A stretch of 64,000 nucleotides of DNA from an uncultured Candidatus Saccharibacteria bacterium. GTDB taxonomy: Bacteria > Patescibacteriota > Minisyncoccia > Sungbacterales > HO2-52-23. The stretch is from NCBI GenBank assembly GCA_964585475.1, contig CAZPDF010000002.1, positions 1,631-65,630 on the forward strand, read 5' to 3'. Every line of letters starts with the position of its first letter. The stretch's first letter is position 1. Made by a program: the position numbers and the translations under genes. The notes below the pieces were generated by a model. The model ran no database searches, was not told where the DNA came from, and saw only the letters and a program-made list of their open reading frames with translations. Below, piece after piece: positions 18,411 to 51,602 of the stretch.

Positions 18411-18581
18411 ATGTCGTACGGATCAGGCGATAGAAGTCTTTTTTGGGTGTTTGTAGGTATTGCATTGTTGTGTCTTGGAGTGATTTACTTTGTGGTAGTG
18501 CCGGAATTAAGAAATAAGTTTGAACGTAAATCGACTACTATTATTGAGATAGAAATAAAAGAAATATCTCCTTCAAAGTAG
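18411..18581 (+). CDS. possible 56-aa membrane peptide translationally coupled to glyA
   Basis: ATG immediately after the glyA TAG; MSYGSGDRSLFWVFVGIALLCLGVIYFVVVPELRNK...; under 60 aa so absent from the track. Confidence 0.3.
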   Translation: MSYGSGDRSLFWVFVGIALLCLGVIYFVVVPELRNKFERKSTTIIEIEIKEISPSK

Positions 18582-18634
18582 CTTTATCCTAGTTTAAGGA
18601 AGCCATCGTCGAGCTCGGCTCGACCATCGCGCTT

Positions 18635-18760
18635 CTCCGGTAGCAGAACTTTGACTGGCTCACGAGGCCAGTTTTTGACGAGCCAAAGTTCGCTACCGGA
18701 CTGCGCCCAGTAGTAGAATTTTGACCGAGCTTAGCTCGGTTTTTCTTTACCCTGTTACCA
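18635..18760. repeat. Hairpin/terminator-like repeat, CCGGTAGCAGAACTTTG family, left copy
   Basis: ccggtagcagaactttgactggctcacgaggccagtttttgacgagccaaagttcgctaccgg is a long IR; related copy at 19215-19290. Confidence 0.5.
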
Positions 18761-18874
18761 AAAGCCGCGGTCGTAAGGCCGTGGTAGTGGGGTTTACCGA
18801 AACTCACCATAGGGATTCGCTTCTTGATCCTTTACTGTTATACTTACCCTAGGTTCTTTAGGGGGCGGGGAGTA

Positions 18875-19201
18875 ATGTCCAAGGCAACCGTAGTGAAAAT
18901 CGGCCATTTCCCGCTCAATTTAGGTGCGGAAAACTCGGAGGCGTTATTTAACGCAATAATTAAGGAGGTTATGGGCCCCCGAGCAAGGGAGTTTGGTCTA
19001 GAGGACTTTGAATACAACGGGGCCGACCATATTGGAGAGATCCAATTTTCCAACGGAGAGGTCTGTCGTGTGCGGCTGATCTTTACCCCGACGCTTAATA
19101 ACGGCGTGACCTTGTGGATCTTTGGAGAGACGAATGTGCTTGGTGATCTTCTGTCCGAGGGATCCGTATTTCTTATAACAACGGCATTCCAACGTCATTA
19201 G
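18875..19201 (+). CDS. hypothetical protein, flanked by related hairpin repeats
   Basis: MSKATVVKIGHFP... start with GGGGGCGGGGAG RBS. Confidence 0.4.
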   Translation: MSKATVVKIGHFPLNLGAENSEALFNAIIKEVMGPRAREFGLEDFEYNGADHIGEIQFSNGEVCRVRLIFTPTLNNGVTLWIFGETNVLGDLLSEGSVFLITTAFQRH

Positions 19202-22097: not shown

Positions 22098-22424
22098 GTT
22101 CCACCCCGTTATCTATTCCATTCCCACCATATCACTGTTTGTGGATACAGAAAAGCCGGTAGCAAGTCCGGGGTTCTATATGGGTGAGAAGGGAGTTGCT
22201 GCCCAAATAAATTTGGGCGAGCCTCGCCCCGATTAAAATCGGGGCGGGAACCCGCCCGTTCAGATGCCGCGGGAGAGAGTTGAACTCTCACGGGGTTGCC
22301 CCCAATGGATTTTGAGTCCATCGCGTCTGCCAATTTCGCCACCGCGGCACACCGCTATTTTATTATAAAAACGCCCGTTTTTCAATGGTTGAAAATAAAA
22401 GTTCATTGGTTTAAAGTTCAAGTG

Positions 22425-23266: not shown

Positions 23267-24277
23267 ATGACAGATCCATTAGGTAGGGGCCTCGAATCCT
23301 TAATACCCAACAAAGAGCCGGACGAAGTTCCGGGGGTTTTGAATACGGAGCCGCAGGATCCGCCCTCTCCTTTAGCAGAAAAACCCCGGCCGTCTCTTGT
23401 CAATCTTGGCTCTCCGGCCGCGCGCACTTACGAGGATCATTTTACTCCTCGCAGGAGCGATTCTGTTTTTTGGATAGAAATTGAAAAAATCGAGCCGAAT
23501 CCTTACCAGCCGCGCCGCGAATTTAATGAGGAGGCATTAAAAGGGCTTGCGCATTCCATCCGCGAACACGGAGTGCTCCAGCCGATACTTGTTACCAAGC
23601 GCGAGATAGAAACTCCGACCGGCCTGGATGTCCGGTATCAATTGATTGCCGGAGAAAGACGGTGGCGCGCGGCAGGCCTGGCCGGCCTCTCCCAAATTCC
23701 TGCGGTAATCAGGCGCGGCATTCCGGATGACCGGATACGGCTTGAGCTCGCCTTAATTGAGAATGTACAGCGCGAGGATTTAAACCCGATGGAAAAAGCC
23801 CGGGCATTCAAGCAATTGATTGACGAGTTTCATCTGGTACAGCGCGAGATTGCCGAGCGCATCGGAAAATCGCGTGAGATGATTGCCAATACCCTCCGTC
23901 TTTTATCACTTTCGCCGGACATCCAGCAAGCGCTCCACGAGGGGCGCATAACCGAAGGACACGCGCGGGCGGTTTTGATGGCCGGTGACGATCCGCAAAA
24001 ACAGACGCTAGTTTTTAATGCCGTGGTAATGGATCGCCTGAATGTTCGAGAGGCGGAAAACCGCGCGCGGCAAGTTTCCGGAAAAATTTTTGTTCCGCGA
24101 AAACGTCCTGCGCAAGTCCATGATCCGGAGACGCGTTCTTGGCAGACAAAACTCGAGGAGCTATTAGGAACTAAAGTCCGAGTGGAGAAATTGGGCGAGC
24201 GCGGAAAAATTGTCGTTGAATTTTATTCGGATGAGGAATTAAGAGGTATACTTGACAAATTAATAAGGGAGGTATAG
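23267..24277 (+). CDS. parB: chromosome partitioning protein ParB/Spo0J
   Basis: IEKIEPNPYQPRREF...QLIAGERRWRAAGLAG...HTH; C-terminal GERGKIVVEFYSDEELRGILDKLIREV. Confidence 0.9.
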   Translation: MTDPLGRGLESLIPNKEPDEVPGVLNTEPQDPPSPLAEKPRPSLVNLGSPAARTYEDHFTPRRSDSVFWIEIEKIEPNPYQPRREFNEEALKGLAHSIREHGVLQPILVTKREIETPTGLDVRYQLIAGERRWRAAGLAGLSQIPAVIRRGIPDDRIRLELALIENVQREDLNPMEKARAFKQLIDEFHLVQREIAERIGKSREMIANTLRLLSLSPDIQQALHEGRITEGHARAVLMAGDDPQKQTLVFNAVVMDRLNVREAENRARQVSGKIFVPRKRPAQVHDPETRSWQTKLEELLGTKVRVEKLGERGKIVVEFYSDEELRGILDKLIREV

Positions 24278-24667: not shown

Positions 24668-24692
24668 TCGGCCCCCCGCGGGCCATTTTTTG
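24668..24692 (+). terminator. rho-independent terminator (GGCCCCC.GCGGGCC family)
   Basis: cggccccccgcgggcc plus T-run; near-identical hairpins at 25027, 26295 and 28660. Confidence 0.7.
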
Positions 24693-24757
24693 TTCTTGAC
24701 AAGTTGATCCGAGAGACCTAAAGTTGACTCAGTTCATCATTCGGGGGAAGTTAATAA

Positions 24758-25026: not shown

Positions 25027-25053
25027 ACGGCCCCCTCGGGCCGTATTTATTTT
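25027..25053 (+). terminator. rho-independent terminator
   Basis: cggccccctcgggccg plus tatttatttttt. Confidence 0.7.
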
Positions 25054-25082
25054 TTGACATTTAGTTGCAGTAGGTATAAACT
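25054..25082 (+). promoter_or_regulatory. sigma70-like promoter (TTGACA ... TATAAA) driving a near-leaderless antitoxin transcript
   Basis: TTGACA at 25054-25059, TATAAA at 25075-25080, ATG at 25091 without an SD. Confidence 0.5.
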
Positions 25083-25090
25083 GCAAGTGT

Positions 25091-25324
25091 ATGAATGTCG
25101 TCACTATTCCCAAAAAACTTGCGCAAAGAGACGATTTGGTTGTCATACCTCGGGGAGAGTATGAGGACCTTTTGGAGTTAAAGAAAATAATCCCCATGGT
25201 TAAAGCTACCAAGGCCGAACTGCGGGCTATCCGGCGGGGCGAACGTGAAATTGCGAGAGGGGAATATGTAACTTGGCGCGAATTAAAATATGATTTGGCG
25301 TGTACTCGTAACCGGAAGCGCTAA
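25091..25324 (+). CDS. AbrB/MazE-fold (SpoVT_AbrB-like) type II antitoxin candidate
   Basis: MNVVTIPKKLAQRDDLVVIPRGEYEDLL has a duplicated V.IP(K/R) swapped-hairpin-like motif; paralog at 50704-50979; followed by a RelE/ParE-like toxin remnant. Confidence 0.5.
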   Translation: MNVVTIPKKLAQRDDLVVIPRGEYEDLLELKKIIPMVKATKAELRAIRRGEREIARGEYVTWRELKYDLACTRNRKR

Positions 25325-25546
25325 AAACAACTAAAGCGTATACCGAAAGGGGGTGCAGAACGAATTGAGGCGGTAATTGACGAGATGGAGGATAATCCTT
25401 TGCGCGGCGATATCGTAAAGCTTGGCGGCGAAGGCGATAGGTGGCGGAGACGCATTGGCGGTTACCGAATTCTCTATCGGCTTTCTTACAACGAGAGGGC
25501 AATTTTTATTTATGATATCAGCAGACGAACTAGCAGCACTTATTAA
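25290..25546 (+). pseudogene. RelE/ParE-family toxin gene disrupted by a -1 frameshift at an A5 run (about 25330)
   Basis: Frame B reads MIWRVLVTGSAKNN*. Frame A continues as KQLKRIPKGGAERIEAVIDEMEDNPLRGDIVKLGGEGDRWRRRIGGYRILYRLSYNERAIFIYDISRRTS. Joined, they give a typical ParE/RelE layout; restoring one C in aacaac[c]taaag rejoins the frames. Confidence 0.5.
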
Positions 25547-25552
25547 AAAGTT

Positions 25553-25745
25553 CCCCCGGAGAAACTCGGCACCAAAGTTATGGTGCAAAAAATAGGGGAG
25601 AGAGGGAAAATTGTGGTGGAATTTTACCCCCACACCTATTAAACGCAATTGAAATTGGTGCGAAGCACAGCGTTTAATAGGTGTGGGGGTTTATTCGGAC
25701 GAGGAGTTAAGAGGGATTCTTGATAAACTTATTCGAGAGGTATAG
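25553..25745 (+). pseudogene. Diverged duplicate of the parB 3' end, interrupted by a 63-bp palindromic element
   Basis: PEKLGTKVMVQKIGERGKIVVEFY-[insert]-SDEELRGILDKLIREV* versus genuine ParB LGTKVRVEKLGERGKIVVEFYSDEELRGILDKLIREV* at 24160-24277. Confidence 0.6.
25627..25689. repeat. Palindromic element, CCCCCACACCTATT family, inside the parB-tail remnant
   Basis: cccccacacctattaaacgc-aattgaaattggtgcgaagcaca-gcgtttaataggtgtggggg has 20-bp perfect TIRs; second family member at 58200-58322. Confidence 0.7.
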
Positions 25746-25752
25746 GGGGATA

Positions 25753-25894
25753 CTTGACCCCGCCTTTGAAAAGGACTGCCTGAGGGCAGATACCTATTTT
25801 GGCAGTTAGAGCCTGATCAATCACGTCAGGGTCTTTTTATTAAACCCACTTAACTTTTTAGAATCTGTCCTTTTCAAGGGCGGGGTTGACAAGT
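25753..25894. repeat. About 25-bp imperfect inverted repeat pair flanking a 90-bp hairpin-rich spacer; the right arm carries the -35 of the downstream promoter
   Basis: acttgaccccgcctttgaaaaggac ... gtccttttcaagggcggggttgacaagt. Confidence 0.5.
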
Positions 25895-25914
25895 GGATAA
25901 GGGAGGGTTAAGAC
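25886..25914 (+). promoter_or_regulatory. sigma70-like promoter
   Basis: TTGACA, then the 17-nt spacer agtggataagggagggt, then TAAGAC; AGGAG RBS and ATG at 25944. Confidence 0.45.
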
Positions 25915-26294: not shown

Positions 26295-26320
26295 TCGGCC
26301 CCCCCGCGGGCCTTTTTTTA
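26295..26320 (+). terminator. rho-independent terminator
   Basis: cggcccccccgcgggcc plus ttttttt. Confidence 0.7.
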
Positions 26321-26507
26321 TTTCACCCCTTTGGTTTGGTAAACTGCTGATTATGCGAATCCGCGTGTCGTTTGAGGGCCTTGCGAGGCGGAGCGGCCAT
26401 GGTTTTCCGCCGGAGGCGGAAAGAGCGACGCCGAGCACGGGAGGTGAGGACGCCTCGGCGGGGCGTCCGACAGCCGTACCGAAAACGACATGTGGATGAG
26501 CGATCTT

Positions 26508-50585: not shown

Positions 50586-50703
50586 GGAAAGACCCAAATG
50601 CTGTGCTATTATATAGTGCGGCATTTTAATTTGGGCACCGAAGATTCGTTTCCAGGAGCGGCTCCTCGGTTGACTTTATTGTTTTTGGGATTAGGATAGC
50701 AAT

Positions 50704-50979
50704 ATGCCCACTATTACTACTCCACGGCATGTGAAAACAAGCGAAGATTTGGTTGCTATTCCACGGAAAGAATATGAGGAGTTTTTGCGCACGCAAAAAC
50801 GCAATGGGAGAGAGGGAAGAGTGAAGCATACGATGAGGGCGCCAAAGAAACCTGAGAGATTTTATAATGGGCTCGATCGGGAGCTTACCGAAGCGCTGCG
50901 AGACATAGAAGCCGGCAAAACCTACGGGCCGTTCAACACCGCAGAAGAGGCGATACGCTTTCTTCGCCGAAAGAGATGA
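50704..50979 (+). CDS. AbrB/MazE-fold antitoxin candidate (paralog of 25091-25324) with RelB/ParD-like C-terminal tail
   Basis: DLVAIPRKEYEEFL versus DLVVIPRGEYEDLL in the paralog; C-terminal LTEALRDIEAGKTYGPFNTAEEAIRFL. Confidence 0.5.
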   Translation: MPTITTPRHVKTSEDLVAIPRKEYEEFLRTQKRNGREGRVKHTMRAPKKPERFYNGLDRELTEALRDIEAGKTYGPFNTAEEAIRFLRRKR

Positions 50980-51067
50980 TGCTAGAATTTACAAAGAAGT
51001 TTGACGATACGTACCGTTCATTTCCGAAAGAGGTTTTTGAATATAAAAAAACACAAGGATTGATTTA
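50975..51067 (+). pseudogene. 5' remnant (30 codons) of a RelE/ParE-family toxin gene
   Basis: MMLEFTKKFDDTYRSFPKEVFEYKKTQGLI** matches the toxin N-terminus (EFT..F...Y...PKEV) and overlaps the antitoxin stop by 4 nt as in intact TA operons; truncated by tandem stops just before the hairpin at 51077. Confidence 0.45.
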
Positions 51068-51101
51068 ATAAAACCACCGAGGAGCGATCCTCGGTGTTGT
51101 G

Positions 51102-51602
51102 TTATATTCTGCGGAAGACTGTAGAAGGCCGCATGGTGAGATAGAACTCTTTGGCCCTCCGGCCTTTCAGGTTTTTGGCGCCATATTTATGAAATGCTTC
51201 CGCTGTGGGTAAGGCTCTCCAGCGTAAGAATGTTTTGAGGCGTGAATCTTTTTTGGGGTCGCGGAGGAACGCGATGAGATCGTTGTATGACCACTCGGCA
51301 AAGATCTCCAGACGCGCAAATGCTCTGTAGAACTTCTTCAGCGGGGATTTAAGTTCCGGCGGATCAACCTCGGAAAGATAAAGGTTTTTGTAGCCCTGTG
51401 ATATGCGAGGATCTTTTAGAACCCGTTTTGCTGTAGCAAGCCATTTTCCGACTTCAGCAGAGTAGGGCGTTCCGTGCTTTTTAGCTTGAGCCATGAGTTT
51501 TCCTTCAAACTCACCGACTGTCATTCTAACCCGAGCGGTTTTCATCTCGTTCCACGCTGATTCAATATCGGCAAGAGCTTTCTGGATGGTAGTCATCCCC
51601 AT
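51102..51602 (-). CDS. hypothetical protein
   Basis: 166-aa ORF. Confidence 0.4.
   Translation of the reverse strand: MGMTTIQKALADIESAWNEMKTARVRMTVGEFEGKLMAQAKKHGTPYSAEVGKWLATAKRVLKDPRISQGYKNLYLSEVDPPELKSPLKKFYRAFARLEIFAEWSYNDLIAFLRDPKKDSRLKTFLRWRALPTAEAFHKYGAKNLKGRRAKEFYLTMRPSTVFRRI

Follow-up and report, generated by a model that had tools for sequence, protein, structure and literature searches.

Two chromosomal type II toxin–antitoxin (TA) modules are encoded at positions 25091-25546 (locus 1) and 50704-51071 (locus 2) of the DNA analysed here, a 64-kb stretch of contig CAZPDF010000002.1 from an ultra-small, groundwater-type member of the Patescibacteria (Candidate Phyla Radiation, CPR); the whole stretch is called the window below. 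In both modules a full-length antitoxin gene is followed by a damaged toxin gene, and we consider it likely that the two modules are in recent toxin-first decay. The presence of two TA loci had been proposed in the original prediction, made from the letters of the window; it is borne out by adjacent, co-oriented and overlapping genes whose pairing is conserved in relatives. Locus 1 has the following features.

25091-25324, + strand: full-length antitoxin 1 (77 aa), made up of the TIPKKL..DLVVIPRxEYE module at its N-terminus and a predicted helical, toxin-binding C-terminal part
25290-25334, + strand: 5′ fragment of toxin 1 in frame A; ATG at 25290, MIWRVLVTGSAKNN, stop at 25332-25334
25323-25327, + strand: A5 run, shortened by 1 nt from an ancestral A6; holds the only gap in the DNA alignment of the operon
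25325-25546, + strand: 3′ fragment of toxin 1 in frame B; 73 codons, KQLKRIPKGG...YDISRRTSSTY, stop at 25544-25546

The start of toxin 1 overlaps the antitoxin 1 gene by 35 nt. The reading frame of the toxin switches at the A5 run, as predicted, from MIWRVLVTGSAKNN in frame A to KQLKRIPKGG... in frame B. The frame A peptide can be aligned with the homologues as far as A11-K12; frame B was matched at E 1.6e-35 (profile positions 13-85) by a hidden Markov model (HMM) built only from 16 intact homologues, with the window sequence left out. We judge this match of frame B to the toxin family to be far above chance. Insertion of one A joins both pieces into an 85-aa protein that scores 37.7 bits on PF05016 (gathering score, 23 bits), in agreement with the proposal that the toxins are of RelE/ParE type.

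The 16 homologues, all of them unbroken, were found among 5.8 billion proteins; they are 85-93 aa long and 47-66% identical to toxin 1. The same search recovered a 53-aa fragment that gene callers derive from the window contig itself. The best homologues come from metagenome-assembled genomes (MAGs) of Patescibacteria (Sungbacteria and similar), with those of Acidobacteria further off. All residues that are invariant in the family (W3, A11, G40, D41, K44, W52-R55, G57, Y59, R60 and R79-Y85) are retained in the window.

Comparison with known structures places toxin 1 close to RelE. The family profile matched the archaeal RelE (1wmi) in the PDB at E 4.9e-8, followed by RelE3, Mycobacterium tuberculosis RelE, YoeB and Escherichia coli RelE. 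An AlphaFold2 (AF2) model of the repaired toxin 1 (predicted local distance difference test score, pLDDT, 90.3) shows a compact alpha/beta fold, beta-alpha-alpha and then an antiparallel sheet, with a strand at residues 4-7, helices at 9-17 and 20-33 and four further strands. In a Foldseek search with this model 1wmi was again on top (TM score 0.87; root-mean-square deviation, rmsd, 1.9 A), with more RelE structures next; 23 PDB chains were found at E <= 1e-3, and those listed were RelE, YoeB, HigB, PfiT-type and similar toxins. ParE structures came out much weaker in that search, with E about 2e-3 vs 6e-7 for RelE. In the sequence profile alignment R80 of toxin 1 is aligned with R85 of aRelE, and in PHROGs toxin 1 matched the RelE-like toxin phrog_1213 at E 2e-16, with no match for the neighbouring open reading frames (ORFs). 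We therefore class toxin 1, by sequence and modelled fold, as RelE-like rather than ParE-like, since RelE chains rank first by profile and by fold, and ParE much lower; family and fold suggest that the intact protein would be an mRNA endonuclease.

The known RelBE systems (Pyrococcus horikoshii aRelE-aRelB, PDB 1WMI; M. tuberculosis RelBE1 and RelBE2; E. coli RelBE) are thus the nearest relatives with respect to the toxin: toxin 1, once repaired, shares their fold and is 30% identical to 1wmi_A, the small upstream antitoxin gene overlaps the toxin gene, and in the toxin 1 family the core is basic and R/K-rich and the C-terminus carries R-R-x-x-x-x-Y. Locus 1 differs from them in that its toxin gene is frameshifted and its antitoxin is unrelated in sequence to RelB/aRelB, with an N-terminal module that is not ribbon-helix-helix. 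As to ParE/ParD, both toxin families of the window match PF05016, which spans ParE and RelE relatives, but nothing at either locus points to gyrase poisoning.

Intact versions of the modules, which the original prediction suggested looking for in related genomes, do exist. The same pairing of antitoxin and toxin is kept across genome loci L003-L007, L011-L015 and L037. For antitoxin 1 there are 29 homologues (44-73% identity); the ones that were inspected are each followed directly by an intact toxin gene. Five genome loci (L020, L024, L027, L032 and L033) gave partial matches to the toxin 1 query (residues 11-85, 24-85, 1-67 and 25-85), which could be further degraded toxins or toxins with divergent N-termini. 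Two copies (L020 and L028) are found in one Patescibacteria MAG, binchicken_co227_1009.

The lesion in toxin 1 can be assigned to a particular base. We aligned the DNA of the whole operon with that of three intact relatives; the single gap of the window falls in the A-run, opposite GCC AAA AAA CAA of L037, which has six As. Across the break the homologues follow the pattern A-x-K-Q/E/H-L, with K13 nearly invariant. The original prediction had a missing C. Repair with C restores the toxin frame just as repair with A does; it was rejected as it yields AKNNLK, unlike the AKKQL of the family, and the DNA gap sits in the A-run. Given the family pattern at the break and the position of the gap, we conclude from the alignments that the lesion is a contraction of A6 to A5 and that the lost base was A, not C.

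Compared with the time since these lineages diverged, the inactivation of toxin 1 appears to be recent, because the non-synonymous difference (pN) between the repaired toxin 1 and intact relatives (0.262) equals that between the intact relatives themselves (0.257) and the gene is otherwise undamaged. The deletion leaves the antitoxin 1 ORF untouched, the first two As of the run belonging to its TAA stop (25322-25324). After the deletion the downstream frame of toxin 1 coincides with the frame of antitoxin 1, with the single TAA at 25322-25324 between them; read-through of this codon would be expected to give an antitoxin-toxin fusion.

A frame change situated exactly on an A-run, followed by a downstream frame that is fully open and conserved, could also be produced by programmed recoding (ribosomal or transcriptional slippage on the run) or by a phase-variable switch in run length, and the original prediction had allowed for a programmed shift. 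The sequence at the site gives no ground for it, however. The zero frame reads GCT AAA AAC, and the heptamer T AAA AAC does not have the X XXY YYZ pattern of a slippery heptamer; tandem -1 slippage is not expected, because the P-site Lys-tRNA would need to re-pair on TAA. All 16 homologues are single uninterrupted ORFs, and the DNA alignment shows no break in the three intact relatives. The run is not kept as a homopolymer either: L016 has GCC AAG CGT, and L018 has an in-frame CCC AAA AAC. Five As are far below the length known for useful transcriptional slippage or phase variation. We give recoding or phase variation hardly any credence.

At locus 2 the damage to the toxin gene is of a different kind. 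The features are listed below.

50704-50979, + strand: antitoxin 2, 91 aa, full length; N-terminal module common to antitoxin 1, C-terminal part different
50976-51068, + strand: 30-codon ORF (toxin 2 stub); ATGA (4-nt) overlap with antitoxin 2, TAA TAA end
50976-51034, + strand: retained 5′ end of toxin 2, about 20 codons, MMLEFTKKFDDTYRSFPKEV; deletion junction at about 51034/51035
51035-51063, + strand: retained 3′ end of toxin 2, 29 nt, 27 of them identical to L011
51075-51096, no strand assigned: bidirectional terminator hairpin with a 9-bp stem, shared with the convergent gene 51102-51602 and conserved in L011

Antitoxin 2 has 14 homologues. L011, L012 and L013-15 have an antitoxin 2 homologue whose end overlaps, again by ATGA, the start of an 81-aa gene; the 81-aa protein scores 33.3 bits on PF05016 in L013 and 21.9 bits, just under the cut-off of 23, in L011. 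The 30-codon stub is too short to be scored on PF05016; through its intact homologues we assign toxin 2 to the RelE/ParE superfamily, so that the predicted type is supported for the second toxin as well. L011, an intact copy of the locus 2 module, comes from the same ENA sample as the window contig, and its antitoxin is 74% identical to antitoxin 2.

Compared with L011, the window retains 59 bases from the start of the toxin gene and 29 from its end, and 158 nt between them are missing; the hairpin and the convergent gene still align. In its original (+1) frame the 3′ remnant reads FLNIKKHKD and a stop, vs ILNIRKHQD and a stop in L011. The loss of 158 nt, a length not divisible by three, puts this remnant out of frame in the stub, where it is read as FEYKKTQGLI followed by two stops. 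A toxin-2 HMM built from three intact genes, with the window sequence left out, gave the stub as the top match (E 0.0015, profile positions 1-20) and the +1-frame remnant as the next best (profile positions 73-81; E 2.5, not significant alone). The comparison shows that toxin 2 has an internal 158-nt deletion rather than a simple truncation. The original prediction had taken the 30 codons as the start of the toxin; this holds for the first 20, which are the toxin N-terminus, and the last 10 are the out-of-frame 3′ end of the toxin gene. The tandem stops (TAA TAA) and the hairpin that it described behind the stub are both present.

These observations fit the following course of events. An intact module would consist of a small antitoxin gene and an overlapping downstream toxin gene of the RelE/ParE superfamily, co-transcribed from a near-leaderless promoter. 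By analogy with other type II antitoxins, the N-terminal module of the antitoxin would bind DNA and repress the operon, and its C-terminal helices would wrap the toxin. The intact toxin of locus 1, to judge from its fold and family, would be a RelE-type ribosome-dependent mRNA endonuclease. Replication slippage may then have removed one A of the A6 at codons 12-13 of toxin 1, so that translation would end after 14 codons; toxin 2, having lost its 158 internal bases, would be reduced to a 30-residue peptide without the toxin core. The antitoxin genes and their promoters are intact, and antitoxin is presumably still produced, probably with no selection left to maintain it. A cell that loses the antitoxin before the toxin is poisoned, and inactivation of the toxin first is the only tolerated route. 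An intact antitoxin beside a dead toxin is therefore the expected intermediate, and both predicted halves of this state, inactivated toxins and antitoxin ORFs of full length, are seen at both loci.

Loss of the toxin with the antitoxin kept is the ordinary, usual route of TA decay. Orphan antitoxins are common as remnants of degraded pairs, and many stand in the context of a former pair (PMC7192599; PMC7354431). In Klebsiella, E. coli and Bartonella, intact antitoxins have been described next to degraded or absent toxins, in the context of valid pairs elsewhere (PMC7192599; PMC7354431). The present case differs from these orphans in that the host belongs to the CPR/Patescibacteria and both lesions are reconstructed to the base.

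Several points weigh against recent toxin-first decay. A 1-nt change in homopolymer length is a classic type of error, and a sequencing or assembly error would mean that the true genome has A6 and an intact toxin 1. We compared the NCBI MAG contig with two other assemblies, with ENA ERZ27284378 (k139 MEGAHIT) over 20,162 bases and with the Logan assembly of SRR8863434 over 4,103 bases; both are 100% identical to the window, A5 included. The agreement of three assemblies rules out an assembler artefact, not a read-level error, because reads behind the NCBI contig may also have gone into the ENA and Logan assemblies; possibly all three come from one and the same sequencing run. It is also possible that the population is a mix of A5 and A6 at 25323-25327. 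No strain-level relatives with A6 were found in a JGI metagenome scan with the toxin protein, and in the genome scan no relative exceeded 64% identity. Against every available relative the synonymous sites have reached saturation (dS 1.5 to above 3), and for this reason the dN/dS ratio is uninformative on relaxed vs purifying selection. Finally, the DNA-binding role of the antitoxins is assumed, for a family without a curated model or a solved structure.

As regards the error, the three assemblies come from different pipelines and agree base for base over 4-20 kb, a run of 5-6 nt is short for an error at the consensus level, and locus 2 provides an independent and unambiguous 158-nt deletion, which makes toxin loss in character for this genome. 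We regard such an error as very unlikely.

The intact ORFs and promoters of both antitoxins could have another reason: the antitoxins might be orphans kept by selection, either to neutralise RelE-type toxins arriving from mobile elements or neighbours or to regulate other genes. This model has been discussed for orphan antitoxins (PMC7192599; PMC7354431), and the intact locus 2 module in another organism of the same sample speaks for it. An intact antitoxin is equally expected soon after toxin loss, however, and toxin 1 has lost just one base, the rest of its gene being undamaged. In IMG/VR viral contigs neither toxin 1 nor the antitoxin family had a relative, and antitoxin 1 had no match in PLSDB plasmids or GenBank phages; these collections are poor in CPR elements, and the negative evidence is accordingly weak. 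The 64-kb window has no other member of either toxin family, nor of the antitoxin family. Moreover, codon 6 of antitoxin 2 (50719-50721) encodes Thr, where at least 90% of 44 aligned family members have Ile (P0025 has Ala); the substitution may mark the beginning of relaxed constraint, or be a tolerated variant. Selected orphans are thus unlikely in our estimate; an anti-addiction role is not needed to account for the data and gains no support from them. A more specific form of the idea, which we also find unlikely, is that selection in a streamlined CPR genome keeps the antitoxins as immunity to cognate RelE-type modules of the community, binding DNA through a half-length module that is perhaps a new minimal DNA-binding fold.

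Toxin-first decay remains the preferred reading, and it has consequences for annotation. Two ORFs, one of 53 aa at 25385-25546 and one of 30 aa at 50976-51068, would be annotated as toxin pseudogene fragments, not as genes, and the antitoxins as antitoxins of RelE/ParE-type modules, not as members of the AbrB family. The two loci provide a clean, base-resolved example of toxin-first TA decay in a Patescibacteria genome; the finding itself opens no new question.

Both antitoxins are full length against their families, with the conserved residues present. The prediction that they are paralogous is correct for their N-terminal 52 residues (37% identity, E 2e-9) and does not extend beyond them. 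The core T-I-P-x-x-L ... D-L-V-x-I-P-R-x-E-Y-E is nearly invariant in 44 aligned sequences of the family. The C-terminal segment of antitoxin 1 was also found behind a ribbon-helix-helix domain (P0058) and, in Acidobacteria, behind a longer, AbrB-looking domain; the N-terminal module also precedes an unrelated C-terminus (P0059-62). The module that is recombined with various C-terminal toxin-binding parts comprises 25 N-terminal residues, and the design of these antitoxins appears to be modular. An antitoxin profile search against 1.84 billion representatives gave 701 clusters (50% identity) at E <= 1e-3 and 291 at E <= 1e-10. The family, which includes the two antitoxins and P0063-P0212, is thus sizeable, and it still lacks a curated model in Pfam or NCBIfam.

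The antitoxins had been predicted to be AbrB-like, with a PF04014 search as the proposed check. There is some likeness. The VxIPkkl...LvviP motif recalls the two strands of the swapped-hairpin domain of AbrB/MazE/SpoVT (PF04014). The Acidobacterial cognates of toxins of the same family (L019, L021 and L022) have a longer N-terminal domain that looks like AbrB by eye, together with the same C-terminal toxin-binding segment; L008, which shares an identical antitoxin with L019, reaches 19.4 bits on PF04014 (cut-off, 24.7 bits), and one relative of the N-terminal module is named AbrB/MazE/SpoVT by NCBI. Weak matches to PF04014 were given by 5 of 44 family members (best E 0.005) and by 6 of 150 (best E 3.4e-5). 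The module of the window antitoxins differs, however, in being about half as long as the AbrB domain, with two very short strands in the model. Neither window antitoxin matched PF04014, any other Pfam family or any NCBIfam model, the family profile had no match among PDB sequences, and hhalign against AbrB and MazE gave a probability of <1%. The AF2 model of the antitoxin monomer (pLDDT 78.8; predicted template modelling score, pTM, 0.36) has two 2-residue strands (4-5 and 19-20) and four helices, and Foldseek found nothing in the PDB below E 6 with it. We did not adopt the AbrB-like label: no match reached a curated threshold, matches to PF04014 were weak and confined to a few relatives, and hhalign and Foldseek returned nothing.

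Three features upstream of the antitoxin genes bear on their expression.

25054-25082, + strand: promoter-like site of locus 1, TTGACA-17-TAAACT; 8 nt separate its end from the ATG at 25091
50670-50697, + strand: promoter-like site of locus 2, TTGACT-16-TAGGAT; 6 nt separate its end from the ATG at 50704
25058-25093, no strand assigned: imperfect inverted repeat with 14-nt arms, 79% complementary, core TTGCAGT/ACTGCAA; covers the -10 box and the start codon

No other strong promoter-like sites adjoin the antitoxin genes. Overall, promoter-like sites are no more numerous than expected from shuffling, and the evidence for these two is their position. In the relatives a -10-like box lies 5-7 nt before the ATG of the antitoxin. 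Because the -10 boxes lie so near the start codons, in the window and in the relatives, both operons look leaderless or nearly so. The promoters that had been predicted for both antitoxins are thus matched by suitable sites; the leaderless character, which the prediction had reserved for the first, would apply to both. The inverted repeat at 25058-25093 is a plausible candidate for an operator through which the antitoxin would regulate its own operon.

The locus 1 module occupies part of the 2.2 kb that separate parB from relA, along with three ORFs without family matches. We compared 80 related parB loci: ORF109, ORF88 and ORF114 occur in 0 of 80, a homologue of the locus 1 module occurs in L085 and L086 only, about 1.5 kb upstream of parB, and relA is present, next to parB, in 42. 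Since the ORFs are absent from all of these loci and the module is present in two only, locus 1 belongs to lineage-specific accessory DNA. In two relatives the homologous module is located between glyA and folD, and in the closer of them (L003-5) a convergent relA/spoT gene directly follows parB. The glyA-folD interval of the window (18411-19201) holds two ORFs, of 56 aa and 108 aa, with no Pfam match and no similarity to the TA families. An Rfam scan of the window found one tRNA (22265-22348) and nothing at locus 1 or locus 2.

The 3′ end of parB is present three times in this region, and further repeats are associated with it, as listed here.

24165-24277: functional 3′ end of parB
25555-25745: second copy of the parB 3′ end, roughly 80% identical, beginning 9 nt past the toxin 1 stop, EKLGTKVMVQKIGERGKIVVEFY/SDEELRGILDKLIREV and a stop
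25749-25910: third copy, a remnant of the last ~30 nt (ILDKWIREG and a stop)
25626-25690: 66-nt insert in the second parB remnant, with perfect 21-nt inverted arms (ACCCCCACACCTATTAAACGC) and TTTA on either side
25757-25886: inverted-repeat element splitting the third parB remnant, with 20-nt arms, 95% complementary and 90 nt apart, and TTGAC on either side
24670-24694, 25027-25052 and 26297-26322: near-identical terminator hairpins, GGCCCCCCGCGGGCC plus a T-run, after ORF109, ORF88 and ORF114

The locus 1 module, ORF109 and ORF88 lie between the first and second copies of the parB end. The arrangement is as if DNA had inserted into the end of parB and supplied a replacement terminus. None of the 80 related parB loci has a duplicated parB end; the parB 3′ end as a recurrent integration hotspot was considered and dismissed on this count, and the event seems to be a one-off. 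The 25626-25690 insert resembles a miniature inverted-repeat element flanked by a duplicated target, and no second copy of it was found within the window; the 25757-25886 element likewise has no other copy within the window and no Rfam match. The three hairpins, being nearly identical, may share an origin or be instances of a terminator cassette that is reused locally.

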